A DNA stretch of 64,000 nucleotides, taken from the NCBI GenBank assembly GCA_947631015.1, contig CANRJS010000004.1, positions 48,913 to 112,912 on the forward strand, given 5' to 3'. Shown piece by piece: positions 6,186 to 60,243 of the stretch (the first letter of the stretch is position 1; each line of letters opens with the position of its first letter). The notes beneath the pieces were generated by a model. That model worked only from the letters and a program-made list of their open reading frames with translations, did no database searches and was not told the origin of the DNA. The stretch comes from an uncultured Clostridia bacterium. Its GTDB lineage: Bacteria > Bacillota > Clostridia > Oscillospirales > JAAYOS01. Made by a program: the position numbers and the translations under genes.

Positions 6186-6590
6186 CGAAATGTGCTCGAG
6201 CAATGAATTGCCCTGCGCACCCTTTCGCAATTCCCGCGCGGTCGCCGACCGCGCGGGAGCCCTTTTAATTAACATGCTCGGGGCAAATGAATTGCCCCTG
6301 CGCGATATTGCCTGCGGCAACATCAACCGCGCGAACAGGCGCGGAACAGCGCTACGCGCCGAGTTTTCCGCCTTCGGCGGAAAATCGACGCACGCTCCGC
6401 GAGAGGTGTAAATTTCGACCTACGGTTCGTACAATGTCGGGACGTCGGCGCGAAGCGCCGAGGTCTGATGCGCCCGGTAGAAAGTTGCGGTTCGTAGTCA
6501 GTAGAAGGGCGCATTCGCGCCGCCGAAAATGATTTGAATTTATTTCGCCGCTAACGCGGCGAAACTCTGCGAGGCTGTCGGCGAGCAAAA
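6186..6590 (+). repeat. Intergenic multi-hairpin repeat locus A (half unit, one type-1 unit at 6229-6345, one type-2 unit)
   Basis: Shares the modules AATTCCC-hairpin-GGGAGCCCTT..ATGCTCG-hairpin(loop ATGAA)-TGCGC-hairpin-AACCGCGCGAACAGGCGCGG, TTTTCCGCC-TTCG-GGCGGAAAA and GCGAAACTCTGCGAGGC with loci at 8.3, 12.3, 22.4, 29.3 and 59.3 kb. Confidence 0.85.
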
Positions 6591-6788
6591 CGCCCACCAT
6601 TCCTCTTGCCATGCAGAAAACCCGAACATTCCAAAATTGCCGCACGTTCCGCGCAACGCGCGGCAGTTTTTGTTGTCTATATGTATAGAGAGCTCTTTAC
6701 GCGGCGAAGCCCGTTCCGCAGCCGTTCTTCAACACCCGTTTGAGTCCGTTCCCGGCGGCGCGCGCCGGAAACATGAAAGGAGGCCGCC

Positions 6789-7349
6789 ATGACTGACGAA
6801 GAGATAGTCGCGCTGTACTTCGCGCGCTCGGAGGAAGCCGTCGCCGCAACCGAGCGGCAGTACGGCGCGTACTGCCGCCGCATAGCGCGCACGATACTTC
6901 TTTCCGACGAGGACGCGGACGAGTGCCTCAATGACACTCTGCTCGCCGCATGGCGCTCGATACCTCCGGCAAAGCCCCGGAGCCTCGCCGCCTACCTCGG
7001 ACGGACGGCGCGCAACCTCGCCCTCAACCGCTTCAAGCTGTATTCGGCGCAGAAGCGCGGCGGCAGTGAGACGGCGCTCGCCCTCGACGAGCTCGGCGAC
7101 TGCGTCCCGTCCTCCGGCTCGGTCGAGGAGGAACTGAACGCGGCGCTCCTCTCGGATGCGATATCGCGCTTCCTCCGCGCCGAGCCGGAGGAGAAACGGA
7201 GGGTGTTCGTCCGCCGCTACTGGTACCTCTCCCCTCTCGAGGAGATCGCGGCGGAGTACGGCATGAGCCGCAGCAAACTCACAAGCCTCCTGTACAGGAT
7301 GCGGAAAGACCTGAAGAAATTCCTTGCAAAGGAGGGCTTTCACATATGA
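6789..7349 (+). CDS. RNA polymerase sigma-70 family factor, ECF-type
   Basis: 186 aa with region 2 (CLNDTLLAAWRS) and a region 4 HTH (LSPLEEIAAEYGMSRSKLTSLLYRMRKDL). RBS AAAGGAGG. Confidence 0.85.
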   Translation: MTDEEIVALYFARSEEAVAATERQYGAYCRRIARTILLSDEDADECLNDTLLAAWRSIPPAKPRSLAAYLGRTARNLALNRFKLYSAQKRGGSETALALDELGDCVPSSGSVEEELNAALLSDAISRFLRAEPEEKRRVFVRRYWYLSPLEEIAAEYGMSRSKLTSLLYRMRKDLKKFLAKEGFHI

Positions 7350-8344
7350 AAGAGAACAACAGCGAAGCGATGCTCCGCGCGATAGGCGGCATAGACGACG
7401 ACCTCATACTTTCCGCCGCGCCGGGCGAGCCGAAGCCGCGTCCCGCCCACCGTGTGCGCTTCGTCCGCCGGACGGCGGCGGTGCTCGCGGCGGCGCTGAT
7501 GCTCTCGCTCGCGGGCGTCGGCACGGCGATGGCCGTGAGCGAGGACGTCCGCGAAAGCGTGACCGAGGCCGCCCGAGCCGTCCGAAACGCGGTGCTCCGC
7601 GTCTTCGGCTTCGGCGACCCCGCGCCCGCGAACTCCTCCGACGCACAGAACCGCCGCGACCGCATAGACCGCTCCGACGGCGTCGAACACGCGCGCCTCA
7701 CCGAGCTTCGGAACGAGGCTCAGCTCTGGCTCCGCCAGGAACTCTCCCTCGACGGCGGCATAGACTTTGCCTCAGAGGACTGGTCGGATGCGGACGGCGT
7801 ATACGTCTGCCTGCTCGAACGCCGCCGCGACCCGTCCGCAGGAGAGGCAAGGTCCGAGGGGTACGACTCCCCCGTCCTCGCCGTCGTCGAATGGACGGAG
7901 GACGGCTTCGTCCTCCGCGGTCACACCGGGTTTTCGGAGGCTCCGGACGACGTTGCCGTCGCGGAGACCGAGGACGTCACCGCCGTATTCGGCAGCACCG
8001 CGCCGCTCGACGGCCGCTTTGCGGAACTCACATCCGTCAGCGCCCGGTGCTCGGACGGTTCGGTGCACATCTGCCGGACCTTCGGCGACGGATACTTCTT
8101 CCTTGTCGTGTGGCACACCGAACCGGGCGCGACGCTCGAGCGGATATACGCCTCCGGCGCTCTGAAGGAGCCGGCGACCGTGCCGCATCAGTACGACCGC
8201 ACGCTCGGGCGATACCTCGACGAGACGCAGGTGACCGACGTGACGCTCTGCCGCACCCCCGGCTCGGACACATGGCAGAACTACTGCGCCATAGTCGACG
8301 GCCGCGAGATGTTCTTTGAGCCGTTCATCACACCCGCCCCCTGA
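7346..8344 (+). CDS. Putative anti-sigma factor / single-pass membrane protein
   Basis: Start overlaps the sigma-factor stop (ATGA). Short cytoplasmic N-terminus, one TM helix (AAVLAAALMLSLAGVGTAMA) and an extracytoplasmic region of about 260 aa. No recognisable domain, so the function is inferred from position only. Confidence 0.55.
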   Translation: MKENNSEAMLRAIGGIDDDLILSAAPGEPKPRPAHRVRFVRRTAAVLAAALMLSLAGVGTAMAVSEDVRESVTEAARAVRNAVLRVFGFGDPAPANSSDAQNRRDRIDRSDGVEHARLTELRNEAQLWLRQELSLDGGIDFASEDWSDADGVYVCLLERRRDPSAGEARSEGYDSPVLAVVEWTEDGFVLRGHTGFSEAPDDVAVAETEDVTAVFGSTAPLDGRFAELTSVSARCSDGSVHICRTFGDGYFFLVVWHTEPGATLERIYASGALKEPATVPHQYDRTLGRYLDETQVTDVTLCRTPGSDTWQNYCAIVDGREMFFEPFITPAP

Positions 8345-8657
8345 CGCAATTCCCGCGCGGTCGGCGACCGCGCGGGAGCCCTTCCGATTGAAATGCTCGG
8401 GGCAACTGAATTGCCCCTGCGCAAATTCGGCGCAAAGCGCCGAATTTAACCGCGCGAACCGGCGCGGAGTGCGGCTTCGCCGCGACAGCCTCGCAGAGTT
8501 CGCCGCGTAAGCGGCGAATAGAGTCAAATTCATTTTCGGCGGCGGCGTGTACGTCGCCGAAAATACTTCTCGCGGAGCGCGCGTCGAAGACGGCAACTCC
8601 GTCGAGGCGCGTAGCGCAGCGTTTGCCGTCGGCAAGGCTGCGCCTTATTCGGCGGCC
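8345..8657. repeat. Intergenic multi-hairpin repeat locus B (type-1 unit at 8348-8468 in plus orientation; type-2 unit at about 8470-8657 in minus orientation)
   Basis: Lies between convergent genes. The left half matches loci A, D and E in plus orientation. The right half is the reverse complement of the type-2 module seen at 6346-6590 and 12410-12600. Confidence 0.85.
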
Positions 8658-8716
8658 TCGCGGGAAATTGGTAAGGCGGGCAGACAAAGTCTGCCCGCCT
8701 TACCAATTTCCCGCGA
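8658..8716. terminator. 28-bp perfect-stem hairpin between convergent genes (bidirectional terminator candidate; part of the repeat family)
   Basis: TCGCGGGAAATTGGTAAGGCGGGCAGAC-AAA-GTCTGCCCGCCTTACCAATTTCCCGCGA. Begins 5 nt from the CDF stop codon. A/T runs on both sides. Confidence 0.7.
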
Positions 8717-8720
8717 AAAC

Positions 8721-9590
8721 TTATTTTTCGTAAGGATTGACATGCACCATGCAGTGCTCGACCCGTAGTCCCGCGTCCTCGACGCCCTTGTGGACAGCCT
8801 CCGCTATCCGGTGCGCCTCCCGGAGCGGCATATCCGCGTCCACCGCTATTTCGATGTCCACGAACGCGACGTTCCCGCTTATCCGCGCCCGCAGCTCATC
8901 TACCGCGCGGACACCCTCCGTCGCGAGCGCCACCTCGCGTATCTTCTCAAGCTCCTCGGGCGGAATGCTGCGGTCGGTGAGGCGGCTCATCGCCTCGCGC
9001 AGGATGTCAAACGCCGCCTTGAGTATGAGCACCGAGACGCCTATCGCCGCCACCGGCTCGAGCCACCACACGCCTACCATGTTCCCGCCGACGCCGACGA
9101 GCACCGCCACCGAGCTCACCGCGTCGGTGCGGTGGTGCCACGCGTCCGCCATCAGCGAAAGCGAGTTCACCTTCTTCGCCGCGCGGCGGGTGTAGCGGAA
9201 CATCCACTCCTTTGCCATGATCGAGATGACCGTCACCGCGAGCGCGGCGGCGGACGCCTCCGAGCGCTCGCCGAGCCACAGGCTCCGCGCACCCTCAACG
9301 CCTATCATCACCGCCGTGCCGCCGAGCGCCACTGCAAGCAGCACCGACACGAGGCTCTCTATCCGCTGGTGCCCGTAGGGATGGTCCTCGTCCGCGCTGT
9401 TCGAGGCGAGCCGCAGTCCGAGCAGCACCGCGACGGTCGTCGCGACGTCCGAGACCGTATGTACGCCGTCGCTTATCACCGAAACGCTGTGCGCGAAAAA
9501 TCCCACCGTGAGCTTCACCGCCGCAAGGACGGCGTTCGCTATCATTGTTGTGACCGACACTTTTTTCGCTGTCAGATAGCTGTTTTCCAC
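8721..9590 (-). CDS. Cation diffusion facilitator (CDF) family metal efflux transporter
   Basis: HSVSVISDGVHTVSD and DAWHHRTD metal-site motifs, six TM segments and a C-terminal cytoplasmic domain. I chose GTG 9590 (RBS AAGGAGA 8 nt upstream) over the track's ATG 9749, whose extension is non-hydrophobic and covers the promoter. Confidence 0.85.
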   Translation of the reverse strand: MENSYLTAKKVSVTTMIANAVLAAVKLTVGFFAHSVSVISDGVHTVSDVATTVAVLLGLRLASNSADEDHPYGHQRIESLVSVLLAVALGGTAVMIGVEGARSLWLGERSEASAAALAVTVISIMAKEWMFRYTRRAAKKVNSLSLMADAWHHRTDAVSSVAVLVGVGGNMVGVWWLEPVAAIGVSVLILKAAFDILREAMSRLTDRSIPPEELEKIREVALATEGVRAVDELRARISGNVAFVDIEIAVDADMPLREAHRIAEAVHKGVEDAGLRVEHCMVHVNPYEK

Positions 9591-9720
9591 AGAGAATATC
9601 TCCTTTTCGGACGTTTTGCGCCCGGGCTTGTATCTCCCCGCCCGCGCGTGTATAATACATATATATGCCGCCTCTCCCCGCGCTGACAATACGCCGCGCG
9701 GAAAGCTTTGATTAACGCAT
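9591..9720 (-). promoter_or_regulatory. GC-rich structured 5' UTR of about 130 nt for the CDF gene (candidate metal-responsive leader)
   Basis: Lies between the consensus promoter and the RBS. Contains hairpins CCGCGC..GCGCGG and GCGCGGGC..GCCCGGGCGC. Membership of a known riboswitch class is not verified. Confidence 0.3.
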
Positions 9721-9749
9721 ATTGTATCACATGTCTCCTTCCCTTTCAA
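9721..9749 (-). promoter_or_regulatory. Sigma-A-type promoter for the CDF gene
   Basis: On the minus strand: TTGAAA, 17 nt, TACAAT. Confidence 0.6.
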
Positions 9750-12329: not shown

Positions 12330-12637
12330 GGCTTCGCGGCGAATCGCGCTCGCTTCGCTCGCTTACCAATTCGCCGCGAAAGCACCGGACAGAGCGGAGC
12401 TCTGCCGGTGCTATGCGCTCCGCTTCGCGCCGAGTTTTCCGCCTTCGGCGGAAAATCGACGCGCGCTCCGCGCAAAGAGTTTTTTCCGACGTACACGCCG
12501 TCGGAAAAAACGGATTTGACTTTATTTCGCGCCGTTGGCGCGAAACTCTGCGAGGCCAATCGGCGCAAAGCGCCGTTTTGGATTTGGCGAAACTCTGCGA
12601 GGCAGGTCAGCGCGCAGCGGCGCTCGTTTACCTGCTT
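12330..12637 (+). repeat. Intergenic multi-hairpin repeat locus C (type-2 modules; GCGAAACTCTGCGAGGC present twice)
   Basis: Contains CTTACCAATTCGCCGCGAAA, CACCGGACAGAGC..GCTCTGCCGGTG, GAGTTTTCCGCCTTCGGCGGAAAATCGACGCGCGCTCCGCG and two copies of GCGAAACTCTGCGAGGC. All are shared with loci A, B, E and F. Confidence 0.8.
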
Positions 12638-14399: not shown

Positions 14400-14648
14400 A
14401 AATAGCGAAAGACCGTGACCGGGAGAGTAACGGCGGAGCGCGCCAAGAGAGGCGGGGTCGTGGGCTGAAAGCCCCGCCGCGAAGCGAAGCCGCGAAGTTC
14501 ACCCGTGAGTCGCGCGGCTGAAAGCCATGCCTGTAGGCCGCGACGTGGGCGCACGTTACAGCGCGGACGAGGGCGCGGAGCATCCCGCGCCGAAGTTGGG
14601 TGGTACCGCGAAGTCTGCCTTCGCCCCAATGCGGGCGGAGGCTTTTTA
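14400..14648 (+). ncRNA. T-box riboswitch leader, Phe-specific
   Basis: Conserved T-box sequence AAGTTGGGTGGTACCGCG at 14593-14610. TTC codon at 14498-14500 in GAAGTTCA (candidate specifier). GTGA (14415-14418) and AGAGTA (14424-14429) stem-I motifs. Terminator GCCTTCGCCC / GGGCGGAGGC at 14617-14642 plus TTTTT. Sits directly upstream of pheS. Confidence 0.85.
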
Positions 14649-18338: not shown

Positions 18339-18599
18339 ATGGACGCGACGCGCAAATTCTCACCCATTGACGACGAGCACCGTATCCCCATGCGCGAGGC
18401 GCTGCGCGCCGTATACAGCTCCCTTCAGGAGAAGGGCTACGATCCCCTCAACCAGATAGTCGGATACCTGCTGAGCGAGGATCCCACCTACATCACAAAT
18501 CACAAGAACGCGCGGAGCCTCATCCGCCGTCTCGACCGTGACGAGCTGATGCAGGAGCTCGTGCGGAGCTACCTCGGCATTGAGGACGGGGAGAAGTGA
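18339..18599 (+). CDS. IreB family regulatory phosphoprotein (UPF0297)
   Basis: 86 aa. The pattern ...[37 protein letters not shown] is characteristic of IreB/YrzL. Confidence 0.85.
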
Positions 18600-18628
18600 C
18601 CCCCGCTCCGCAAAACGACACCGTGACC

Positions 18629-18666
18629 AAGCTGGCGCTTTCCTTTCGGAAAGCGCCAGCTTTTTG
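18629..18666 (+). terminator. Rho-independent terminator after the ireB-like gene
   Basis: AAGCTGGCGCTTTCC-TTTC-GGAAAGCGCCAGCTT followed by TTTT. Confidence 0.8.
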
Positions 18667-18818
18667 TCCCGCGCCCGCGCGGCGCGGCGTTTTTCCCGAC
18701 GCGCCGCTTTTTTGCCTTATCTTACGGTTTTTCATGCCAAATCAGGAAATTTCTGCCGATTATTCCTGCTTCCGCTGAAATAAATTGTCTTTCATGGGAT
18801 TTATTTTGCTTCCCGCTC

Positions 18819-18847
18819 TTGACACCGCCGTGCCTCGGTGATAAAAT
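18819..18847 (+). promoter_or_regulatory. Sigma-A promoter of the 96-aa gene / NlpC-P60 pair
   Basis: TTGACA (18819-18824), 17 nt, TAAAAT (18842-18847). An 11-bp tandem AAATAGTTACA x2 at 18844-18865 overlaps the -10 element and start region. Confidence 0.6.
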
Positions 18848-18896
18848 AGTTACAAAATAGTTACAACCTTCGGAGCGTATCTGAAAGGAGATCCCA

Positions 18897-19187
18897 ATGG
18901 CAAAGAAGAAAACATCGGAGCTCATCTGGCGCGGGTACCCCCTCGTGCGGAGCGGCAACACGATCTACTACGGCAACATTACCGACCCCTATATCGCGAT
19001 GCTCAGAATTACATCCACCAAGCAGGTCGGCGACCTCGAGGTGGCGGATAAGGTCTCTCTCCAGCTTCAGGCTACGGGAGAGGACGTTCACACCCGCGAC
19101 CGCGTCCAGAAGCGCGCCGAGAAGGACGGGCTCTATCCCGCGCTCGACCTCGCAAGCGTCTGGCTCTCCCGTGCGCTGAAGGCATAA
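18897..19187 (+). CDS. Hypothetical small protein (96 aa)
   Basis: RBS AAAGGAG. High-G+C codon pattern consistent with coding. No domain recognised. Ends 9 nt before the NlpC/P60 gene. Confidence 0.6.
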   Translation: MAKKKTSELIWRGYPLVRSGNTIYYGNITDPYIAMLRITSTKQVGDLEVADKVSLQLQATGEDVHTRDRVQKRAEKDGLYPALDLASVWLSRALKA

Positions 19188-19195
19188 GGCGGCGC

Positions 19196-20140
19196 ATGAT
19201 GAAAAGAAGTCTGAAAATACTGATTTGTGCGGCGTCTCTCATCGTTCTCGCGATTTTCGCATGCTCTGCGGACGCCGTCGAAGCAGGGACTGTCAATGCC
19301 GAAAGCGGACTTCGCCTCCGCACCGCCGCGAGCACTTCCGCCGGCACTGTATCCATACTTCCGAACGGCTCCGAGGTCATCATCACCGAGGTCGGAACGG
19401 AGTGGTGCAAGGTGAACTGCGGCAGCGCCGAGGGATATATGTCCACCGAATACCTCACCCGTTCGGACACCGCTGCCTTCGAGACGCCCTACACCGGCAA
19501 GGTCACGGCGTCGGTCGTCAACCTCCGTGCGGAAGCGAATACGACGAGCACCGTGCTCGGTCAGCTCGTCGAGAACTCCGAGGTCGTCATACTCGGCGTA
19601 TCCGGCGGATGGTACCACGTCCTCGCAAACGACGTGGAGGGCTTCATCCACCCCGACTACGTCGTCCCGACGGCGGTCATGTCATCCGATGACGCCGCTC
19701 CCGCGTCGGAAGCGCCCGCGGCCGCGAGCGCCGACTTCGTCCCCGCCTCCCAAGACGTGAGCGACCTGCGCGCACAGCTTATCGCCTTTGCAAAGCAGTA
19801 CATCGGCACCCGCTATACCTATGGCGGACGTTCCCCTTCCACCGGCTTTGACTGCTCAGGTTTCGTGTACTACGTCTTTAAGAACTTCGGCTACACCCTC
19901 AACCCCGGCGCTTCCACCCAGATGGACAAGGTCACAGTGATAAAGAAGGCCGAGCTCGTACCGGGCGACCTGGTGTTCTTCAACAACGGCACCGCCCGCC
20001 GTGCAAGTCACGTCGGCATCTACATCGGCAACAATCAGTTCATCCACGCCGTCTCTCCGGGGCATCCGGTCGCTGTCTCCTCGCTTGACGGCGGATATTA
20101 CAGCCGCTGCTTCGTCGGCGGCGGACGCGTCCTTCCGTAA
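19196..20140 (+). CDS. Secreted SH3b-domain NlpC/P60 (C40) peptidoglycan endopeptidase
   Basis: Signal peptide, two SH3b-like repeats (GTVNAESGLRLRTAAS.., GKVTASVVNLRAEAN..) and a C-terminal NlpC/P60 domain with catalytic DCSGFV and SHVGIY. Confidence 0.9.
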   Translation: MMKRSLKILICAASLIVLAIFACSADAVEAGTVNAESGLRLRTAASTSAGTVSILPNGSEVIITEVGTEWCKVNCGSAEGYMSTEYLTRSDTAAFETPYTGKVTASVVNLRAEANTTSTVLGQLVENSEVVILGVSGGWYHVLANDVEGFIHPDYVVPTAVMSSDDAAPASEAPAAASADFVPASQDVSDLRAQLIAFAKQYIGTRYTYGGRSPSTGFDCSGFVYYVFKNFGYTLNPGASTQMDKVTVIKKAELVPGDLVFFNNGTARRASHVGIYIGNNQFIHAVSPGHPVAVSSLDGGYYSRCFVGGGRVLP

Positions 20141-20179
20141 AAAATTTGCGGCGGAACTCAATATGGGCTTAATAACTTA

Positions 20180-20215
20180 CCGAGCTTCGGAGCAATGCTC
20201 CGGGGCTCGGTTTTT
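20180..20215 (+). terminator. Rho-independent terminator after the NlpC/P60 gene
   Basis: CCGAGC..CGGAGC-AAT-GCTCCG..GCTCGG followed by TTTTT. Confidence 0.7.
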
Positions 20216-20316
20216 ATATGTCCGCACCGACGCGCCGCGAAAATCTTTTCTTGCCTACTTTCATATATTGTGGTAGTATTATTGTGTATGCAAATCACTG
20301 AGGAGGCGTTTTCCGA

Positions 20317-21162
20317 ATGCGTTTTACCAAGATGCACGGCTGCGGCAACGACTATATATACGTTGACTGCTTCCATGAGAAGGCAGACGTGCAAAATCCC
20401 GAACAGCTCTCAAGGCGGCTGAGCGACCGCCACTTCGGAGTAGGCTCGGACGGCCTTATCTTCATCAAGCCTAGCCCCGTGGCGGACTGCTTTATGGATA
20501 TGTACAACTACGACGGACCGCGCAGCGAGATGTGCGGCAACGGCATCCGCTGCGTCGGCAAGTACCTCTACGACCACGGCATCGTCGACCGCGACGTCAT
20601 AACTGTCGACACGCTCGCGGGCGTCAAGACCCTCTACCTGCACATCGAGAACGGCGTCTGCACCGGCGCGACCGTCGACATGGGCGAGCCGATACTTCTC
20701 CCGCAGATGATACCCACCGAGCTTCACGGCAGCGACGGACGCGCTGTCGACGTCCCGCTTGACGCGGACGGCGTCACCTACCGCGTCACCTGCGTGTCTA
20801 TGGGGAACCCCCACGCCGTCGTCGTCGTGGACGACCCCGCGTCCTTCCCCGTCCGCGAGGTTGGAATGCGGATAGAGACGCACCCCGCCTTCCCCCGCCG
20901 CACCAACGTCCACTTCATCCGCGCGGAATCGCGCGACAGCATCATCATCCGCACATGGGAGCGCGCCACCGGCGAGACGCTCGCCTGCGGCACCGGCAAC
21001 TGCGCCTCCCTCGTCGCGGCGACGCTGCTCGGACTCTCGGACGGCGAGGCGGAGATGCACTGTCTCGGCGGCACGCTCCACATCAAGTGGGACAGAAACG
21101 ACAACCACGTCTACATGACCGGCCCCGCCGTCGAGGTGTTCTCCGGCAGCATAGACGTCTGA
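20317..21162 (+). CDS. dapF: Diaminopimelate epimerase
   Basis: 281 aa with MRFTKMHGCGNDYIYVD, the two catalytic Cys motifs (MCGNGIRC, LACGTG) and SMGNPH. Confidence 0.93.
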   Translation: MRFTKMHGCGNDYIYVDCFHEKADVQNPEQLSRRLSDRHFGVGSDGLIFIKPSPVADCFMDMYNYDGPRSEMCGNGIRCVGKYLYDHGIVDRDVITVDTLAGVKTLYLHIENGVCTGATVDMGEPILLPQMIPTELHGSDGRAVDVPLDADGVTYRVTCVSMGNPHAVVVVDDPASFPVREVGMRIETHPAFPRRTNVHFIRAESRDSIIIRTWERATGETLACGTGNCASLVAATLLGLSDGEAEMHCLGGTLHIKWDRNDNHVYMTGPAVEVFSGSIDV

Positions 21163-21197
21163 ACCTCAAAAACATCCCTTGGTCAGGAGGAAAATCA

Positions 21198-22403
21198 ATG
21201 AAACTGAATGACAACTTCCGCAAGATGCAGTCAAACTACCTCTTCTACACCGTCCGCGTCAAGACGAACGAGTACCTTGAGAGCCACCCCGGCGCCGAGG
21301 TCATACGCCTCGGGATAGGAGACGTCACGCTCCCGCTCGTCCCCGCCGTCATAGACGCGATGCATGCCGCCGTCTCGGACATGGGCAGCGCCGCCACCTT
21401 CAAGGGCTACGGCGAGGACTTCGGCTACTCCTTCCTCCGCCGCGCGATAATCGAGCAGGACTACAAGCCGCTCGGCGTCGACCTCGCGCTCGAGGAGGTC
21501 TTTATCAACGACGGCGCGAAGAGCGACACCGGCAACTTTGCGGAGCTCTTCGACCGCGACAACGTCGTCGCCGTCTGCGACCCGGTCTACCCCGTCTACG
21601 TCGACTCGAACGCCATGGCCGGCCGCGCCGGCGACTTTGACGGCGAGCGTTGGAGTAAGCTCCTCTACATGCCCTGCGTCGCCTCGAACGGCTTCATTCC
21701 GGAGCCGCCGAAGGAGCATGCGGACATCATCTACCTCTGCTTCCCGAACAACCCGACCGGCGCTCACATCGGCTACGACGAGCTGAAGGCGTGGGTCGAC
21801 TACGCCCTCCGCGAGGGCTCGGTCATACTCTATGACGCGGCCTACTGCGCCTTCATCGAGGGCGACATGCCCCGCTCGATATACGAGATAGACGGCGCGA
21901 AGCGCTGCGCCGTCGAGTTCCGGAGCTACTCCAAGACCGCCGGCTTCACCGGCGTGCGCTGCGGCTTCACCGTTGTACCGAACGACCTCGTCTTCTACGG
22001 GCAGAGCCTCCGCGCGATGTGGGCGCGCCGCCAGACCACGAAGTTCAACGAGGCAAGCTATATCTCCCAGCGCGGCGCGGCGGCGATATACACGCCGGAG
22101 GGCGCAAAGCAGGCCATGGAGTCTATCGCCTACTACAAGAACAACGCAAAGACCCTCCGCGAGGGACTTCAGGCGCTCGGCTTTGAGGTCTACGGCGGGG
22201 TACATTCCCCCTACGTCTGGCTCGCGACGCCGAACGGCATGACCTCGTGGGAGTTCTTTGACGCACTGCTCGACCGCGCGCAGGTCGTCGGCACCCCCGG
22301 CTCGGGCTTCGGGCCGTGCGGCGAGAGCTACTTCCGCCTCACGAGCTTCGGCACGCTCGAAAACTCGCTCCGCGCGCTCGAGCGGATAAAGGAAAGCTTC
22401 TAA
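21198..22403 (+). CDS. dapL: LL-diaminopimelate aminotransferase (DapL-type)
   Basis: 401 aa from ATG 21198 (RBS AGGAGG). SYSKTAGFTGVRCG PLP-lysine motif and the N-terminal N.N....SNYLF pattern. Adjacent to dapF. The track ORF start at 20955 overlaps dapF and is rejected. Confidence 0.85.
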   Translation: MKLNDNFRKMQSNYLFYTVRVKTNEYLESHPGAEVIRLGIGDVTLPLVPAVIDAMHAAVSDMGSAATFKGYGEDFGYSFLRRAIIEQDYKPLGVDLALEEVFINDGAKSDTGNFAELFDRDNVVAVCDPVYPVYVDSNAMAGRAGDFDGERWSKLLYMPCVASNGFIPEPPKEHADIIYLCFPNNPTGAHIGYDELKAWVDYALREGSVILYDAAYCAFIEGDMPRSIYEIDGAKRCAVEFRSYSKTAGFTGVRCGFTVVPNDLVFYGQSLRAMWARRQTTKFNEASYISQRGAAAIYTPEGAKQAMESIAYYKNNAKTLREGLQALGFEVYGGVHSPYVWLATPNGMTSWEFFDALLDRAQVVGTPGSGFGPCGESYFRLTSFGTLENSLRALERIKESF

Positions 22404-22404
22404 G

Positions 22405-22620
22405 TTTCGCTTCGCGTCGACGCGAAATGTGCTCGGGCGCAATGAATTGCCCTGCGCACCCTTTCGTAATTCCCAAACGCTCCAAAGGAGCGTTTGGGAG
22501 CCCTTCCGATTAAAATGCTCGCCGGAAATGAATTCCGGCTCCGCGAAGTTGGCGGCAAAGCCGCCAACTTCAACCGCGCAAACCGGCGCAGCGCAGCCGC
22601 AGGCTGCGTAGAAGGCAGGA
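22405..22620 (+). repeat. Intergenic multi-hairpin repeat locus D (half unit plus type-1 unit at 22468-22590)
   Basis: The first ~50 nt, GCGAAATGTGCTCG..CAATGAATTGCCCTGCGCACCCTTTCG.AATTCCC, are near-identical to 6187-6235. The hairpin stems differ from other copies but remain paired. Confidence 0.85.
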
Positions 22621-25446: not shown

Positions 25447-25983
25447 ATGCCCCGACGCGCGCGAAAAGTTCCCCTCCCGCGAAAATCGCCGGCGAAGCGG
25501 GCATATTCATTATTTATGTAAACTTGCGTCACATTTGTACGGAAACGAAATCGCGCTTTCGGGCTCCGGATATATTCCTCAATTTTCCCCGAAGCCGTTG
25601 CGGCGCAAGGCGTTCGCCCTTGTTAATAAGTCTGTGGATAATGTGAATAACTTCTTGTTGTAGCTTTATTGCTATTTTTTATGTCCACTGGCTACATTAT
25701 TATTCTTTCGAAAAAATCCGCCCAGGAAGTGGCGGATTTTCCCCGTTCCTGCGCAAAATCGAGTCTTTTCGGCAAAATGACATCTTCTGCCAAAAATTAC
25801 GCTTTCGACAATTTGTGCGCGTCGCGGCCGTTTTCGACCGGTTGGTGTCACACTTATACGAAGTGTTATCCGGCCTTTACCGTCGCTCCCGCCGCGCCGT
25901 GCAGTTATTCATTCAATTATTTCGCATCCTTGGAAAAAATCGGCTGTACTTTTGTTCAAATCGGACGGCGCGCCGCAGTCCCC

Positions 25984-29259: not shown

Positions 29260-29315
29260 CTCCCCCAACAGGAAGAACCGCGGGCACAAGCCCGCGGTTC
29301 TTCCTGTTGGGGGAG
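29260..29315. terminator. 26-bp perfect-stem hairpin after lacZ
   Basis: CTCCCCCAACAGGAAGAACCGCGGGC-ACAA-GCCCGCGGTTCTTCCTGTTGGGGGAG. No strong T-run follows. Confidence 0.6.
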
Positions 29316-29562
29316 TTGCCCCAAACGGCGCTCTGCGCCGTTTGGGGACCCCTTTAATTTAAATGCTCGGGGCGAATGAATCGCCCCTGCGCGATTTCGT
29401 CGCTGTGCGGCGAAATCACCGCGCGAACCAGCGCGGTCGCCGCTCACGCGGCGAAACTCTGTAGGGTTTCGTGAAAAATCACGCGGGCAAAGCCGCAATT
29501 CCTAAACGCTCAGTTGGAGCGTTGGGATCCCTTTTGATTGAAATTTTCGGGGCAATTCAGCA
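29316..29562 (+). repeat. Intergenic multi-hairpin repeat locus E (type-1 unit at 29317-29436, GCGAAACTCTG module, truncated second type-1 unit at 29497-29562)
   Basis: CCCC-AAACGGCGC-TCT-GCGCCGTTT-GGGG..AAATGCTCG-GGGGCGA-ATGAA-TCGCCCC-TGCGC.. and AATTCCT-AAACGCTC..GAGCGTT-GGGATCCCTTTTGATTGAAATTTTCG-GGGC. Confidence 0.85.
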
Positions 29563-29596
29563 AAAAATGATGCTTTACGTCCACAGCAAATCCCGA

Positions 29597-30211
29597 TCAG
29601 CAGATAATATCTCGCCGGTCTCCCCGAATCAATACGACTTGCCCGTCGGACAATTCTATCGGGCCGTTTTCGGATATTGCCTGACAACAGTTTTCCCGTT
29701 CGGCGTGCGGTATCAGCGGGTTGGATAAGTATCCCAATCCGTCGGCGAAATTCCCGGCGGCAACCATGCTTCCCGCGCTGATCCCCAGATATACCAGCCC
29801 GTTCTCTATCGCCTGCTTCAAAGGCTTGGAGAAGCCTGTTCTGTTTATTTCTCTCAAAAGGGTCGAAGCGTTTCCTCCGCAAAAAGCAATAAAGTCATAC
29901 CGGGAAAGCTCTTCGGCACTCATCAAGCGGATCTGCACGGGGATGTCCTCTACATAATCGGAATATGTCCTTTTATAGCCGTCGGAAAGCAAAAGCGCCA
30001 GATCATATATCAAAATATTACTTACAGCTATCCCCATGCTTTGAAGTCTTTCCAGACATACGATAATGCCCTCCCGCGCGCTGTCGCTTCCGATGGCGGC
30101 AGTCGGGACGAAGCTCGCCTTTGTATGTCGGGGTTCCTTCCCGATACATTCCCAAAACAGCTTGGCAGTCCTTTCATTCAGACCGTTTGAACTTAAAAAC
30201 AGAGTTCTCAT
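29597..30211 (-). CDS. Peptidase S51 (dipeptidase E-like) family protein
   Basis: 204 aa from ATG 30211 (RBS GGAGGTGA). YLGISAGSMVA nucleophile-elbow motif typical of S51. Visibly lower G+C than neighbouring genes. Confidence 0.7.
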   Translation of the reverse strand: MRTLFLSSNGLNERTAKLFWECIGKEPRHTKASFVPTAAIGSDSAREGIIVCLERLQSMGIAVSNILIYDLALLLSDGYKRTYSDYVEDIPVQIRLMSAEELSRYDFIAFCGGNASTLLREINRTGFSKPLKQAIENGLVYLGISAGSMVAAGNFADGLGYLSNPLIPHAERENCCQAISENGPIELSDGQVVLIRGDRRDIIC

Positions 30212-30290
30212 TGTCCTTCTCACCTCCCGTAAAGCAGATACCTCGAAGGCGCGCCGTTCGGTTTCACCGCCGGTTTTGCCGCCAATGGAC

Positions 30291-30791
30291 TTACCTCCCG
30301 CCCAGCTCAAATGACGCTATCTCCCTTGTGGGCCAGAAGGCGCATAAATGCAGTCGGACGATATTTCCGACAAACGGGCAAAACGACCGCACGAACAGCG
30401 GCAGCGCGGAGCAGACCGCTTCCGGCTCGTCTATCAGTACCGTGACATGCGGCGTCCACACGCGTTCCGTATCTGTTTCGCACGCGTCGTGGAGCGCGTC
30501 CAACTGCGCGTTTCTTTCGGGCGCGGCAAAAAGCACCTTTCCTCCGGCGAACATGCCGATATGGCTGATGTGGACCGGAACTGCCGGGAATTCGGCAGCA
30601 GCTTTTTTCATCAAACCGACGACTTCATCCTCCCGCTCAAGCGGAAACGTAGCCAAGCTGATGTGATAAGGAAGCCCCGGCGTCTGTGTTCCGACGAATC
30701 CCGCTTCTTTCAGTGCGCCGTACCATTCGGACAGGCGCTTTTGCGAGATCTCGTCCAAATCCGCCATGAGAGTCAAAAATTCTTCCACCAT
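30291..30791 (-). CDS. 2H phosphoesterase superfamily protein (LigT / 2'-5' RNA ligase-like)
   Basis: 166 aa with two H-x-S/T-x motifs (HISL and HVTV) at the spacing expected for the 2H fold. Confidence 0.65.
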   Translation of the reverse strand: MVEEFLTLMADLDEISQKRLSEWYGALKEAGFVGTQTPGLPYHISLATFPLEREDEVVGLMKKAAAEFPAVPVHISHIGMFAGGKVLFAAPERNAQLDALHDACETDTERVWTPHVTVLIDEPEAVCSALPLFVRSFCPFVGNIVRLHLCAFWPTREIASFELGGR

Positions 30792-59241: not shown

Positions 59242-59344
59242 AAGTCTGTTGAAAAGCCTCGTAGAGTTCGCCGCCGCAGACGGAGAACTCTGGTTCAATC
59301 AGTTTTTCGGCGCCATACGCCCGCGAACCTTTACCACATTCAAC

Positions 59345-59747
59345 TTTCTACGCCGCCAAGGGCGACGTCCGCGCCTGTTCGCGCGGTTAAAGTTGCTTGC
59401 CGCAGGCAAGCAACTTTGCGAAGCCCCGATTCATTCGGGGCGAGCATTTCAATCGGAAGGGCTCCCACGCGGTCACCGACCGCGTGGGAATGCGTCGATT
59501 TTCCGCCGAAGGCGGTTCCGCGCCTGTTCGCGCGGTTAAAGTTGCTTGCCATAGGCAAGCAACTTTGCGGAGCCCCGATTCATTCGGGGCGAGCATTTCA
59601 ATCGGAAGGGCTCCCACGCGGTCACCGACCGCGTGGGAATTGCGTAGCGGAGCGTTGCCACCGGCAGAGCGAAGCTCTGTCCGGCTGTCTCGCGGGAAAT
59701 TGGTAAAGGAGCGGGCTTTTGCCCGCTCCTGCGATTTCCCGCGAAAA
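59345..59747 (-). repeat. Intergenic multi-hairpin repeat locus F: two tandem type-1 units (59370-59491 and 59519-59641, 149-bp period) plus a large-hairpin module (59690-59747), all in minus orientation
   Basis: The reverse complement reads AATTCCC-ACGCGGTC-GGT-GACCGCGT-GGGAGCCCTTCCGATTGAAATGCTCG-CCCCGA-ATGAA-TCGGGG-CTCCGCA-AAGTTGCTTGCC..GGCAAGCAACTT-TAACCGCGCGAACAGGCGCGGA. The unit is duplicated with only a few substitutions. Confidence 0.9.
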
Positions 59748-59783
59748 TTTTTCTGAAAAGTCCTAACGGACTTTTCAGAAAAA
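59748..59783 (-). terminator. Rho-independent terminator directly after the coiled-coil protein gene
   Basis: TTTTTCTGAAAAGTCC-GTTA-GGACTTTTCAGAAAAA on the minus strand, starting 1 nt after the TAA stop and followed by TTTTCG. Confidence 0.8.
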
Positions 59784-59784
59784 T

Positions 59785-60243
59785 TTAATTTTTGCTTGCG
59801 TTCTTGAAGCTCCCGCGTGAGGTCTTGACCTCGCCGAGTGCTTCCTCGAGCGCCTCCTGAGCACGGGCAAGCGCGTCGTCGACATACCTGTTGGTGGCGA
59901 TGCGCAGCTCCTTGCTCTTCTGCTCGGCGGCGTTCACTATCTCGCTTGCCTTCTGTCGCGCCGCGATGACGACCTCGTCGCGGCTGACCATCTGACGCGC
60001 GCGCTCCTCAGCGGCGCGCTTTATGGCGTCCGCCTCGCGCTTGGCGGAACCGCTTATCTCATTCTTGGTCGCCACGATATTGCGGGCCTGCTCTATCTCG
60101 GAGGGCAGTCTGTTCTCGATATCCTCGATAAGCTCCAGCACCTGGGCGCGGTCAATGACGCATTTTGCCCTTCCGAGCGAAAATCCGTCCTGCACCGCGT
60201 TTTTGAGCAGCTCCAAAAGTTCATCTACGTCATGACCGGCCAT
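59785..60243 (-). CDS. Coiled-coil protein of unknown function (often annotated ATPase / ATP synthase subunit b or H-like)
   Basis: 152 aa, highly charged and heptad-rich (..AKREADAIKRAAEERARQM..AEQKSKELRIATNRYVDDALARAQEALEEAL..). Confidence 0.7.
   Translation of the reverse strand: MAGHDVDELLELLKNAVQDGFSLGRAKCVIDRAQVLELIEDIENRLPSEIEQARNIVATKNEISGSAKREADAIKRAAEERARQMVSRDEVVIAARQKASEIVNAAEQKSKELRIATNRYVDDALARAQEALEEALGEVKTSRGSFKNASKN

Follow-up and report, generated by a model that had tools for sequence, protein, structure and literature searches.

Locus A, an intergenic segment at positions 6186-6590 of the 64-kb stretch of DNA analysed here (the window), is built of short hairpin modules that recur elsewhere in the same stretch, which raises the question of what such arrays are and how they came to be assembled. 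A first-pass annotation had described six loci (here A to F) as a dispersed, modular, multi-hairpin intergenic family. All six were found where it had placed them, and the family proved to be genuine, being recognized by a covariance model and exceeding 100 copies in related loci. On balance, we lean towards reading the loci as arrays of small mobile DNA modules that neither code for protein nor move autonomously, with the type-1 unit (T1) as their core.

Modules of the six loci

Six matches to the T1 core pattern were found in the window against 0.00 expected from shuffled sequences, and the hp4 and T2-tail patterns gave six and three matches against 0.3 and 0.02, respectively. The covariance model, an analysis already proposed for this family, was built from 60 T1 units and identified six full copies in the window with scores of 122-140 bits and one truncated copy at ∼23 bits, the remaining matches being noise. 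In a motif scan, the T2, T3, hpA and LH motifs were confined, within the window, to the six loci. The segment 25475-25486, previously suggested to be a remnant of the family, only matches the LH tail over 11 nt, next to an ordinary terminator, and received no model or motif support. The gene content of the window consisted of core genes only, and an Rfam scan of the whole window at gathering thresholds returned a T-box at 14406-14631 and nothing else. The statements that the loci share no conserved open reading frame, no terminal inverted repeats and no CRISPR-like spacing were upheld.

Locus A opens with a leader piece (6186-6228, plus strand) composed of a small CGCG hairpin, AAATGTGCTCG, a short hp2-like hairpin with the loop ATGAA, and TGCGCACCCTTTCGC. 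It looks like a partial T1-like unit placed before the full T1; it is kept at the orthologous site of L004, and the same piece, located by motif positions, precedes T1 copy D at 22420-22467 (plus strand). T1 copy A, with hairpins hp1-hp4, occupies 6229-6345 on the plus strand (model match 6228-6354; 122.8 bits) and has a DNA fold of -39.2 kcal/mol (z = -5.3). It is followed by a T2 unit at 6346-6590 (plus strand) with the head GCGCTACGCGCC, hpA, GACGCACGCTCCGCGAG, hpB, hpC and the tail AAACTCTGCGAGGC. This segment had been taken as one long type-2 unit; T2 itself stands, but comparison of hpB in its short and long forms, between orthologous as well as paralogous sites, revealed that it carries a T3 module of ∼110 nt (about 6404-6516) nested in the loop of hpB. 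The whole array lies between the stop codon of the upstream gene and the actual intrinsic terminator of that gene, which is located past the array at 6649-6672.

In locus B, T1 copy B (8348-8468, plus strand; model match 8347-8477; 133.5 bits; fold z = -6.0) begins 4 nt past the stop codon of the gene at 7346-8344. It is followed by an inverted T2 with a spacer hairpin at 8470-8657 (minus-strand motifs: tail 8488-8502, mid 8569-8585 and head 8606-8617), which is co-oriented with the convergent minus-strand gene at 8721-9749, and then by an LH module at 8658-8716. The latter is a perfect 28-bp palindrome with a 3-nt loop, to which no strand can be assigned; its arms (8658-8685 and 8689-8716) were 100% complementary in a repeat search, and no T-run follows it on either strand. 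Such a large hairpin had been reported to open loci B and F, and a degenerate LH (CGCGGCGAAT...CAATTCGCCGCG) was found to open locus C as well. There, it is followed by the hairpin CACCGGACAGAGC..GCTCTGCCGGTG (12335-12412 for the two together, plus strand; LH tail motif at 12367-12381), and the same pair recurs in L094 and L077. The remainder of locus C, which is without T1, consists of a T2 whose hpB is short and whose tail is doubled (12413-12603, plus strand; hpA3, T2mid and two T2tail motifs), sharing 85% identity across 74 nt with 6350-6423 (family D6).

T1 copy D lies at 22468-22591 on the plus strand (model match 22467-22601; 139.2 bits; fold z = -8.7). T1 copy E, at 29317-29436 on the plus strand (model match 29315-29446; 121.9 bits), is preceded by a long hairpin (29262-29312) downstream of a beta-galactosidase gene. 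It is followed at 29437-29466 (plus strand) by what reads as an hpC-like hairpin with the T2-tail-like sequence AAACTCTGTAGGG, a segment kept in L032, and then by a 3'-truncated T1 at 29497-29562 (plus strand; model match 29496-29576; 23.4 bits). The truncated copy comprises hp1, the linker and the start of hp2, spans nhmmer model positions 3-61 and is missing from the orthologous site of L032.

Locus F is on the minus strand and opens just downstream of the gene at 59785-60243 with the hairpin CCGGACAGAGC..GCTCTGCCGG and an LH (about 59690-59746), together covering 59655-59746 (LH motifs at 59688-59702 and 59732-59746). T1 copy F2 (59519-59641; model match 59508-59642; 140.1 bits), an hpA hairpin (AACCGCCTTCGGCGGAAAATCGACGC) at 59492-59518 (motif at 59492-59507) and T1 copy F1 (59370-59491; model match 59359-59493; 136.4 bits; fold z = -8.7) come next, so arranged that the tandem period of 149 nt equals one T1 plus the 27-nt hpA. 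The distal end of the array (59257-59345, minus strand) is tentatively regarded as a probable remnant of a T2 3' half, with the hpB tail, hpC and AACTCTACGAGGC, a sequence reading that falls under the motif thresholds. In summary, modules are shared among the loci as originally proposed, but their order is not fixed, T2 being inverted in locus B and T1 being absent from locus C.

Covarying stems and hairpin replacement in T1

T1 is a unit of ∼120 nt with four perfect hairpins and conserved single-stranded linkers between them. Its stems have 7-13 bp, and hp1 and hp3 have 11-13 bp with 3-nt loops. Folding returned four hairpins in each copy (z from -5 to -10), and both strands folded equally well. 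In the T1 alignment, 96.8% of stem cells were paired, compared with 81.5% in shuffles and 36-43% in slid registers, and 310 cells were changed on both sides compared with 101 in shuffles, a value that was reached in none of 500 shuffles. T1 stems thus covary strongly. Mismatches of the G-T and A-C types within stems were about equally frequent (∼20 and ∼23), which is uninformative on strand. Considering the perfect stems with short loops, the equal folding of both strands, the balance of the two mismatch types and the mixed orientation of copies described below, the hairpins appear to act at the level of DNA.

Each of hp1, hp2 and hp3 occurred in ∼5 or more discrete stem variants in the 60-sequence alignment, in which the linkers were invariant. 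No GTAG or CGTC tag was present at a fixed position beside the T1 hairpins in this alignment; occurrences of GTAG were limited to the heads of some flanking T2 units and to the T3 loop, where it adjoins a stem. ARAGORN and Rfam detected no tRNA-like fold in T1, whose 3' end is the GC hairpin hp4. Intrinsic terminators were rejected as an identity of these hairpins, because no T-run follows the T1 hairpins and terminator-like sites in and around the arrays were no more numerous than in shuffles. In hpA and hpB, the T-run precedes the stem and an A-run trails it. Copies in other genera end with an additional terminator-like hairpin, hp5.

Comparison of sister species at 90-95% identity demonstrated hairpin replacement at orthologous sites: hairpin variants, module sets and unit numbers differed, whereas the flanks and linkers were unchanged. 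For example, T1 copy E and its ortholog in L032 have the same hp1 and hp4 and different variants of hp2 and hp3, and one orthologous site carries T1 and T2 in one species versus LH, a hairpin and T2 in its sister. Arrays also lengthened or shortened between orthologous sites, which again speaks against the fixed module order assumed at first, and some of them show a pattern of hairpin, unit and partial hairpin. Mutual information among the variants of hp1, hp2 and hp3 equalled the permuted value (p = 0.43, 0.11 and 0.056; n = 84), showing that these variants assort independently. On the other hand, loci A, B and C were 100% identical among conspecific strains in independent assemblies, and phase-variable or hypervariable switching was rejected on this basis.

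Distribution, genomic context and flanking duplications

More than 100 T1 copies occur in three sister metagenome-assembled genomes (MAGs) from rabbit gut, the covariance model having recovered over 100 in the 95 related loci (0.68 Mb). Recognizable relatives were present in Oscillibacter, Dysosmobacter, Lawsonibacter, Flintibacter and Pseudoflavonifractor, including the cultured carriers Oscillibacter valericigenes, Flintibacter porci, Pseudoflavonifractor phocaeensis and Lawsonibacter celer, as well as in human-gut metagenomes, where one T1 locus was near-identical across about 40 samples. In BLAST searches, locus A had no match among plasmids and a single 58-nt match, on an unannotated contig, among phages; a scan of viral contigs yielded one genuine T1 copy, in a phage fragment. 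Confinement of the family to one region, a possibility raised at the outset, does not agree with these results, which refute the idea that the loci are a local artefact of one recent regional segmental duplication or of misassembly. The window copies differ in their hairpins, and independent assemblies of the same species agree exactly at loci A, B and C, so that the likelihood of such an artefact is practically nil. It should be noted that F1 and F2, at 59 kb, are 98% identical (tandem family D2); they form a lone tandem pair and lend no support to segmental duplication.

The other matter left undecided earlier was whether the family had been described. Rfam scans at gathering thresholds of 18 loci from other genera returned tRNA, SRP and T-box matches only, and when loci A and B and one locus with the long T1 form were scanned by E-value, chance hairpin matches were all that appeared. 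A literature search, including the core sequence string, found no account of the family in Oscillospiraceae or Clostridia. Thus, this small non-coding family of hairpin modules of gut Clostridia is apparently undescribed. Integron attC sites, group II intron fragments, IS110 bridge RNA and TnpB/IscB guide-RNA scaffolds were set aside, as no Rfam matches, associated genes or defining sequence features were found for them.

Within the 0.68 Mb of related loci, a single T1 match was inside a called gene and the rest were extragenic. Convergent spacers were enriched for T1 (30% versus 15%). In tandem contexts, 19 copies were in sense and 25 in antisense orientation to the flanking protein genes, and many copies sit past a terminator with no room for a promoter. 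All arrays of the window are co-oriented with the upstream gene; orientation was mixed among the 92 full-length matches overall, which led us to reject a cis-acting mRNA element of fixed polarity. Clustering of open reading frames in 0.74 Mb of T1 loci identified only ordinary genes as recurrent neighbours (ABC transporters, MatE, aminotransferases, response regulators, a lipoprotein family and similar) and no coding partner. Nothing in these 0.74 Mb linked the family to a transposase, a reverse transcriptase or an integrase.

Linkers that are conserved and stems that covary across genera are usually taken as the pattern of a functional RNA or a protein-binding site, and this counts against a mobile element. 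T1 might instead be a structured RNA or cis element with a host function, multiplied by duplication and kept by selection rather than by mobility; it could serve as a 3'-UTR hairpin array that blocks exonucleases or read-through, or as a platform bound by a protein recognizing the conserved linkers. The conserved ATGAA loop, the preference for 3' and convergent spacers, the position of locus A ahead of the actual terminator, the locus shared by so many human-gut samples and the stability of the window loci within species all agree with such a role. However, the absence of an Rfam match, the mixed orientation to transcription, the copies lying beyond terminators, the lack of T-runs after hairpins and the gain, loss and exchange of units at orthologous sites do not, and we consider it rather unlikely. 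In addition, the target duplications described below, including those of copies inside the 5' end of a gene, are hard to explain without insertion.

Flanking target duplications were demonstrated in related genomes. Low-copy sequence of 24 nt or more was directly repeated on the two sides of 25 of 133 T1 cores (∼19%) compared with 20 of 1500 control positions (1.3%), and repeats of at least 40 nt flanked 17 of 133 and 11 of 1500, respectively. The duplications consist of 24-97 nt of unique target sequence, with a different length at every locus, and often comprise the last codons of a gene and its stop codon. For instance, the last 68-71 nt of pheT were duplicated in two Oscillibacter and one Dysosmobacter; other duplicated gene 3' ends measured 61, 49, 45-68 and 34 nt. 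A gene start (44-51 nt) was duplicated in two cultured isolates, and the 3' end of a tRNA-Val gene was duplicated together with its terminator. Among 26 further distinct T1 loci from human-gut metagenomes, six had duplications of 49-88 nt. Assembly error is an unlikely source, since four of the duplication-flanked T1 copies come from cultured isolates and substitutions distinguish the two copies of the repeat. About 80% of T1 copies were without flanking duplication, and the copies and arrays of the window had none above the shuffled background; the behaviour of T1 as an insertion element is not visible from the window alone. With no duplications in the window, and loci A, B and C identical among strains, there is no sign of recent activity in this genome.

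The inserts between the duplications extend from hp1 through hp4 and contain no open reading frame. Their 5' end (CCC...) is precise and always at the base of hp1, preceded by 0-4 extra T-rich bases, and their 3' end (...GCGCGG) is followed by 0-70 extra bases, which in one insert amount to a terminator in sense orientation. Terminal inverted repeats are lacking in T1, an inverted repeat of 2-4 nt being the most that the two ends of these inserts share. Inspection of the junctions revealed neither consistent microhomology nor an obvious target motif. We infer that the duplications arise at insertion; in principle, such structures could also arise afterwards, by duplication and deletion around a hairpin cluster. 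A related possibility dispenses with a dedicated enzyme: hairpin clusters would stall replication, and the nascent strand would switch its template to another copy and then return, giving new insertions with flanking duplications. Template switching would account by a single process for mosaic shuffling at linker points and for nested loop insertions, and also for variable duplication lengths and the absence of an associated gene. It appears improbable given the junctions without consistent microhomology and the precise 5' end, and the strict rules of orientation seen at gene ends and beside tRNA genes suggest that recognition is specific.

These rules are twofold. At duplication-carrying 3' ends of protein genes, T1 was antisense in all of ∼10 cases, with its 3' end always facing the stop-codon side of the duplicated gene end. 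Next to tRNA genes, T1 was immediately downstream and in the orientation of the tRNA at 13 loci, with one exception. No one simple model explains both rules. They may be viewed in terms of a SINE-like retroposon, in which T1 RNA made by read-through of a tRNA terminator would be inserted through target-primed reverse transcription by a resident reverse transcriptase. T1 would then be the first bacterial SINE-like retroposon, a structured RNA of ∼120 nt and a trailer of tRNA genes. Such an origin would explain the long variable duplications, the polarity, the extra junction bases (the T-rich bases before hp1, and 3' bases resembling 3' transduction) and the absence of inverted repeats and of a transposase, and the terminator-like hp5 that finishes copies in other genera would also fit. 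Nevertheless, the perfect palindromic stems, 3-nt loops and lack of a G-U excess point to DNA, a terminator separates the tRNA from T1, and the truncated copy of the window lacks the 3' part instead of the 5' part. We know of no bacterial SINE, and we regard this origin as unlikely.

Proposed origin and comparison with known systems

Under the mobile-module reading that we prefer, a trans-acting factor would copy T1 into new sites, chiefly in spacers at the ends of genes. Insertion would be polar: two nicks tens of bases apart would open the target, and repair would duplicate 24-97 nt of it on both sides. Insertions straddling a stop codon, a start codon or a tRNA plus terminator would survive, as one gene end stays intact. 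Recombination or gene conversion, with breaks falling in the conserved linkers, may then swap entire hairpins between inserted copies, unequal recombination may lengthen or shorten arrays, and T3 and T4 may land in hairpin loops; exchange and nesting together would yield the mosaic module 'grammar' of the window. The window copies would be old and fixed in 3' or convergent spacers of core genes, probably with little effect beyond extra hairpins in 3' regions.

Small intergenic repeats have been well studied in Proteobacteria, and no description was found for the Oscillospiraceae, a dominant family of gut Clostridia. Three features were not found described together elsewhere: conserved linkers with reassorting stems, nesting in loops and the duplication of 24-97 nt of target. 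Duplications of such length and variability pose a mechanistic puzzle, which a 120-nt element present in cultured species makes testable. T1 may represent a novel class of non-autonomous elements, whose mobilizing enzyme would make nicks in the target that are separated by tens of bases; if the intermediate were RNA, it would be a new kind of bacterial retroelement. On the practical side, T1 repeats appear to fragment short-read MAG assemblies and to create pseudo gene ends, and they could act as strain or species markers.

With regard to known systems, the family had been called REP/BIME-like, and as an analogy this is apt. T1 is also short, non-coding, hairpin-forming, high-copy and extragenic, favours 3' and convergent spacers, and occurs in mosaic clusters with linker motifs, the clusters differing between related genomes. 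As an identity it does not hold. T1 has four hairpins in ∼120 nt, whereas a REP is a single palindrome of 20-40 nt; T1 conserves linkers and one loop and varies its stems, whereas REPs conserve the stem; T1 units are not in regular inverted pairs; and T1 insertions in related genomes duplicate their target, which REPs do not. The definition of REPs includes a GTAG (or CGTC) left unpaired where the palindrome ends on one side (PMC3733652), a tag that T1 lacks at any fixed position, and the host family of T1, a Firmicute one, is outside the published REP survey, which has no Firmicutes (PMC3733652).

A true REP/BIME or IS200/IS605 derivative, moved as single-stranded DNA by a RAYT/TnpA (Y1 HUH) enzyme, would share the copy number, extragenic position and hairpin-rich mosaic clusters of T1, and the GTAG beside a stem of T3 might be seen in its favour. 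So might a replication-strand bias, although this is suggestive only: the C-rich strand carried 34 arrays and the G-rich strand 16 (p = 0.015, without full independence of the arrays), and relative to the majority gene strand the split was 30 against 16. Y1 enzymes are not known to leave a target duplication, however, and tblastn searches of ∼0.8 Mb around T1 with approximate queries for Escherichia coli RAYT and IS200 TnpA gave no match. Together with the missing tag and the variable stems, this makes such a derivation quite improbable. The IS200/IS605-derived PATEs, which lack target duplications and lie on the 3' side of a constant tetra- or pentanucleotide, differ from T1 in the same respect of long duplications, and no obvious fixed target motif was seen at the inspected T1 junctions.

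MITEs (Correia/NEMIS, RUP and BOX) are likewise small, non-autonomous, multi-copy, structured, located in spacers and mobilized in trans, and BOX is also modular (boxA, boxB and boxC). In contrast, T1 has neither terminal inverted repeats nor a known parent insertion sequence with the same ends, and its variable duplications are ten times longer than the fixed 2-10 bp of MITEs. T1 thus resembles both REP/BIME elements and MITEs and yet lacks what defines either.

Eukaryotic SINEs are similar in size (∼100-300 nt), non-coding and polar in insertion, with variable target duplications, extra junction bases and a link to tRNA genes. T1 differs from them in having no tRNA-, 7SL- or 5S-derived head and no A-rich or LINE-derived tail, and its perfect palindromes suggest that structure matters at the DNA level; SINE-type retroposition has, to our knowledge, not been demonstrated in bacteria. 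Cas1-type integration of CRISPR spacers and casposons also involves staggered nicks that duplicate ∼14-37 nt, often palindromic, and the succession of hairpin, unit and partial hairpin in some T1 arrays resembles repeat-spacer-repeat. The duplication length of T1 is not fixed, however, the insert always belongs to the same family, the sites are dispersed and cas genes are absent. For IS1549 and IS1634, direct repeats of 8-514 bp have been described, with no mechanism proposed (PMC2266710). These are the only bacterial elements documented here that share with T1 long and variable insertion duplications; members of the IS1634 family are 1.5-2 kb in size and have a DDE transposase gene and terminal inverted repeats, whereas T1 has neither.

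Hairpin modules in the window and their structure

The hairpin family in the window is genuine. The units that the first-pass annotation had reported at six intergenic loci (A to F: 6186-6590, 8345-8716, 12330-12637, 22405-22620, 29316-29562 and 59345-59747) were present on reading the sequence, a core pattern and a covariance model agreed, and its overall description was largely right. The model of the ∼120-nt T1 unit, trained on 60 units, identified exactly six full copies in the 64 kb (122-140 bits) and a truncated one at 29496-29576, with no other credible match. The 25-nt T1 core pattern matched six times in the window versus 0.00 expected, and the patterns for its hairpin hp4 and for the tail of the second unit, T2, were likewise non-random. 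A motif scan showed that T2, its hairpins hpA, hpB and hpC, the nested unit T3 and the large palindrome LH were confined to the six loci within the window. The arrays total ∼1.95 kb (3% of the window); a possible remnant suggested at 25475 turned out to be an 11-nt coincidence adjoining an ordinary terminator.

Read at the six loci, T1 consists of (A)ATT, hp1 (CCC...GGG), the linker AGCCCTTCCGATTGAAATGCTC, hp2, TGCGC, hp3, AA and hp4 (CCGCGC-GAACNG-GCGCGG). Its stems are perfect and 7-13 bp long (11-13 bp in hp1 and hp3, 7 bp in hp2), with loops of 3 nt in hp1 and hp3, 5 nt (ATGAA) in hp2 and 6 nt in hp4. Each unit alone was predicted to fold into four hairpins (-39 to -47 kcal/mol, z = -5 to -10), equally well on either strand. 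Across 60 copies, 96.8% of stem cells were paired, compared with 81.5% with shuffled partners and 36-43% with slid register, and changes on both sides of a stem were found in 310 cells versus 101 in shuffles (reached by 0 of 500), whereas hp4 and the linkers were nearly invariant. Stem mismatches of the G-T (∼20) and A-C (∼23) types were both rare and similar in number; thus, no RNA strand is singled out. The perfect palindromes and 3-nt loops look more like DNA-level structure than a typical functional RNA.

The genes flanking the arrays are all core chromosomal: infB, rbfA, truB, ribF, an ECF sigma factor, a cation efflux protein, L21, L27, obg, an S1-domain protein, pheS and pheT with a T-box leader, dapF, an aminotransferase, an M42 peptidase, lacZ, the entire dcw cluster from mraZ to ftsZ, ilvD, rex and uvrC. 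No transposase, reverse transcriptase or integrase was found in the window. Three arrays lie in tandem and three in convergent spacers, each after a gene's 3' end, and at locus A the array comes after the stop codon but before the real terminator (6649-6672). Terminator analysis of the window arrays ruled out that the T1 hairpins are terminators themselves. A perfect 19-bp palindrome at 59745-59786 (AAATTTTTCTGAAAAGTCC / GGACTTTTCAGAAAAATTT), which separates the LH module from the gene at 59785-60243, is AT-rich, unlike the GC-rich modules, and is likely a bidirectional terminator. The T-box leader upstream of pheS-pheT (14406-14631, plus strand; Rfam, 93.5 bits) contains the ATG at 14527 of the pheS ORF; pheS translation therefore probably begins farther 3'. 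GC skew stays negative throughout the 64 kb, although genes are mostly on the plus strand up to about 30 kb and mostly on the minus strand after it; in the first half, skew and gene-strand bias are thus at odds.

The conserved linkers and covarying stems would favor T1 being an RNA or protein-binding element with a host function. We consider this unlikely, as orientation relative to genes was mixed (19 sense versus 25 antisense, using a rough GC3-based gene caller whose calls looked sound in spot checks), copies sit after terminators, and the insertion signatures described below contradict it.

Distribution of T1 relatives

In a scan of one genome per species, at least 95 stretches with T1-like sequence were detected. 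Among the matches listed, most came from three rabbit-gut 'uncultured Clostridia' MAGs (Lapin-003-2 bin20, Lapin-004 bin9 and Lapin-008 bin30), two of which are 88-92% identical to the window where syntenic; by the covariance model, these related stretches hold more than 100 T1 units in 0.68 Mb. The window was 99.4-100% identical to rabbit-type metagenome assemblies. Relatives could also be recognized in Oscillibacter, Dysosmobacter, Lawsonibacter, Flintibacter, Pseudoflavonifractor and Candidatus Enterenecus, which keep the T1 linker, the hp2 loop and TGCGC but differ in hp3 and hp4 and have an extra hairpin, hp5. A further 77 copies were present among 120 metagenome stretches, mostly from human gut. 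This spread over several genera and over human and rabbit gut therefore indicates a feature of Oscillospiraceae at the family level, whose copy number has surged in one clade, and it rules out regional duplication; local duplication or assembly artefact as the source of the family is excluded.

Locus A matched no plasmid, and phages gave only one 58-nt match to it, on an unannotated contig. One T1-like copy was found in an IMG/VR phage fragment that also carries a P22-like portal gene (L096, 2815-2960, minus strand); this unit has an enlarged hp2 and occupies an intergenic spacer directly upstream of a gene's ribosome-binding site, divergent from the gene. No Rfam family matched T1 or the other modules in the window and related loci, and literature searches, including one with the core sequence string, found no such repeats described for this group; a description outside the searchable literature is possible.

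Several other features were observed at related loci. One T1-like locus after the terminator tail CGTCGTGTCTTTCTTTTT was near-identical in ∼40 metagenome assemblies, mostly from human gut (including L104, L105, L116 and L117), and apparently represents one stable site in a species that is prevalent. Several short Lapin-004 bin9 contigs (for example, L020, L021, L022, L079, L085 and L089) end in or very close to a T1 unit, and the repeats probably break up short-read assemblies of these genomes. Lipoprotein-like paralogues with a signal peptide, a lipobox and a common C-terminal motif (...FCENxDGSGE...), matching no Pfam family, adjoin several T1 loci of the rabbit-gut MAGs (L027 1527-2642, L018, L005 and L016).

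Flanking duplications and turnover at orthologous sites

In three genomes (Oscillibacter valericigenes, another Oscillibacter and a Dysosmobacter), the pheT stop codon is followed directly by a T1-like unit, beyond which the final 68-71 nt of pheT, including the stop codon, occur again (identity between copies, 93%, 86% and 99%). A systematic search then extended this case to many unrelated loci: other gene 3' ends were duplicated over 61, 49, 45-68, 34, 84 and 27-45 nt, a gene start over 44-51 nt (Flintibacter porci and P. phocaeensis), further sites over 53-97 nt, and at a tRNA-Val gene the last 30 nt together with the terminator. Direct repeats of at least 24 nt in low-copy sequence flanked 25 of 133 T1 cores versus 20 of 1500 random positions, and those of at least 40 nt flanked 17 of 133 versus 11 of 1500; human-gut metagenomes added duplications of 49-88 nt at 6 of 26 further distinct loci. 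In some arrays, the sequence repeated beyond hp4 is instead the 3' portion of the array's own hp1. Four duplication-flanked cases are in cultured isolates, and repeat copies are usually a few substitutions apart; misassembly is therefore not a credible cause.

The tRNA-Val repeat (L060, 6850-7345) includes T1, with a 260-nt period and 93% identity over 180 nt, and resembles the duplication of an att site at a tRNA 3' end. In two cultured isolates (L037 5204-5418 and L052 2262-2476), a T1-like unit lies inside the 5' end of a gene with an N-terminal GAGHAG FAD-binding motif, resembling MnmG or TrmFO, whose first ∼15 codons are duplicated. Transcription of the intact copy must pass through the antisense element, whose edge provides the Shine-Dalgarno-like AAAGGA used by that copy.

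Most simply, T1 can be read as an insertion element that duplicates tens of target bases when it integrates. The DNA between the repeats runs from hp1 through hp4, with 0-4 extra T-rich bases 5' of hp1 and 0-70 extra bases 3' of hp4; these inserts had no terminal inverted repeats and, on inspection, no consistent junction microhomology. At protein-gene 3' ends, the duplicated stretch begins 0-16 nt past the stop codon and T1 is antisense in all ∼10 cases. At tRNA genes, T1 is immediately downstream in the same orientation at 13 loci (∼10 independent), with one exception. Within the insertion model, a SINE-like RNA route would fit this polarity, the extra junction bases, the co-oriented tRNA-linked copies and the terminator-like hp5, but it is rather improbable, having no known reverse transcriptase partner and fitting the perfect palindromes poorly.

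At orthologous sites in sister species (90-95% identity), the arrays differed in content. The counterpart of locus A (L004) retains the flanks, leader piece and hp4 and has other variants of hp1, hp2 and hp3, and that of locus E (L032) shares hp1 and hp4 and differs in hp2 and hp3. The L032 site lacks the truncated T1 and the minus-strand S51-peptidase gene (window 29497-30310) and has ∼300 nt of unrelated spacer instead. Other pairs showed T1+T2 versus LH+hairpin+T2, one unit versus two (the indel edged by the direct repeat GCTAYGCAATTCCC) or one versus three, and a spacer downstream of tRNA-Arg was filled in one species and almost empty in the other. Among 84 parsed units (hp2 perfectly paired in 78), variants of hp1, hp2 and hp3 assorted independently, mutual information equalling the permuted value (p = 0.43, 0.11 and 0.056). 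The units are thus mosaics put together combinatorially, and the best explanation is that whole hairpins are exchanged through breaks in the conserved linkers. Nesting was also found: a long T1 form has a ∼95-nt domain in place of the hp2 loop, a related module sits after GAAC in the hp4 loop, and T3 lies in the hpB loop of T2 (∼6404-6516 in the window). Enzyme-free template switching would account for such shuffling and nesting; it is nevertheless quite improbable, leaving both the precise T1 5' end and the apparent absence of junction microhomology unexplained.

The window loci are stable within the species. Three independent conspecific assemblies were identical to the window at loci A, B and C, their ∼60 differences all falling in an unrelated recombination tract (18.4-21.5 kb). 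In two conspecific metagenome contigs (L098 and L099), ∼60 substitutions or indels lay nearly all in 18464-21539, which spans IreB, NlpC/P60, DapF and an aminotransferase and was probably imported by recombination; the remainder of the 21 kb was nearly identical.

Insertion model and comparison with known elements

On balance, we lean toward a model in which T1 would insert by polar copy-and-paste at widely staggered nicks, driven by a putative trans-acting factor. Insertions would survive where the duplication keeps one intact gene end. Such a model would explain why T1 lies hard against stop codons (4 nt after the stop at locus B), why terminator/T1/terminator arrangements recur and why orthologous sites show turnover. 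Recombination between conserved linkers could suffice for later hairpin shuffling and array growth. The argument for mobility rests on the relatives, and the window copies are without sign of recent activity: having no detectable flanking duplication and being fixed in the species, they would be old insertions embedded in arrays.

It is highly improbable that T1 is a true member of the REP/RAYT system, which fails on the tag and on stem conservation and for which target duplications should be absent. No Y1 gene was found near T1 copies with approximate query sequences. A survey of GTAG- or CGTC-tagged REPs does not include Firmicutes in its list (PMC3733652). T1 belongs among the small non-autonomous intergenic repeat elements; if instead it were a bacterial retroposon or used a new integration chemistry, as a minority reading has it, it would form a new category altogether. 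Known bacterial transposases, to our knowledge, generate target duplications of 2-14 bp. Documented exceptions are IS1549 and IS1634, with duplications of 8-514 bp and no proposed mechanism (PMC2266710); these are full insertion sequences with inverted repeats, whereas T1 inserts lack terminal ones. The label 'REP-like' given in the first-pass annotation fits as an analogy at most: these modular hairpin elements of Oscillospiraceae behave as mobile DNA, with target duplications that are long and variable and hairpin cassettes that recombine freely.
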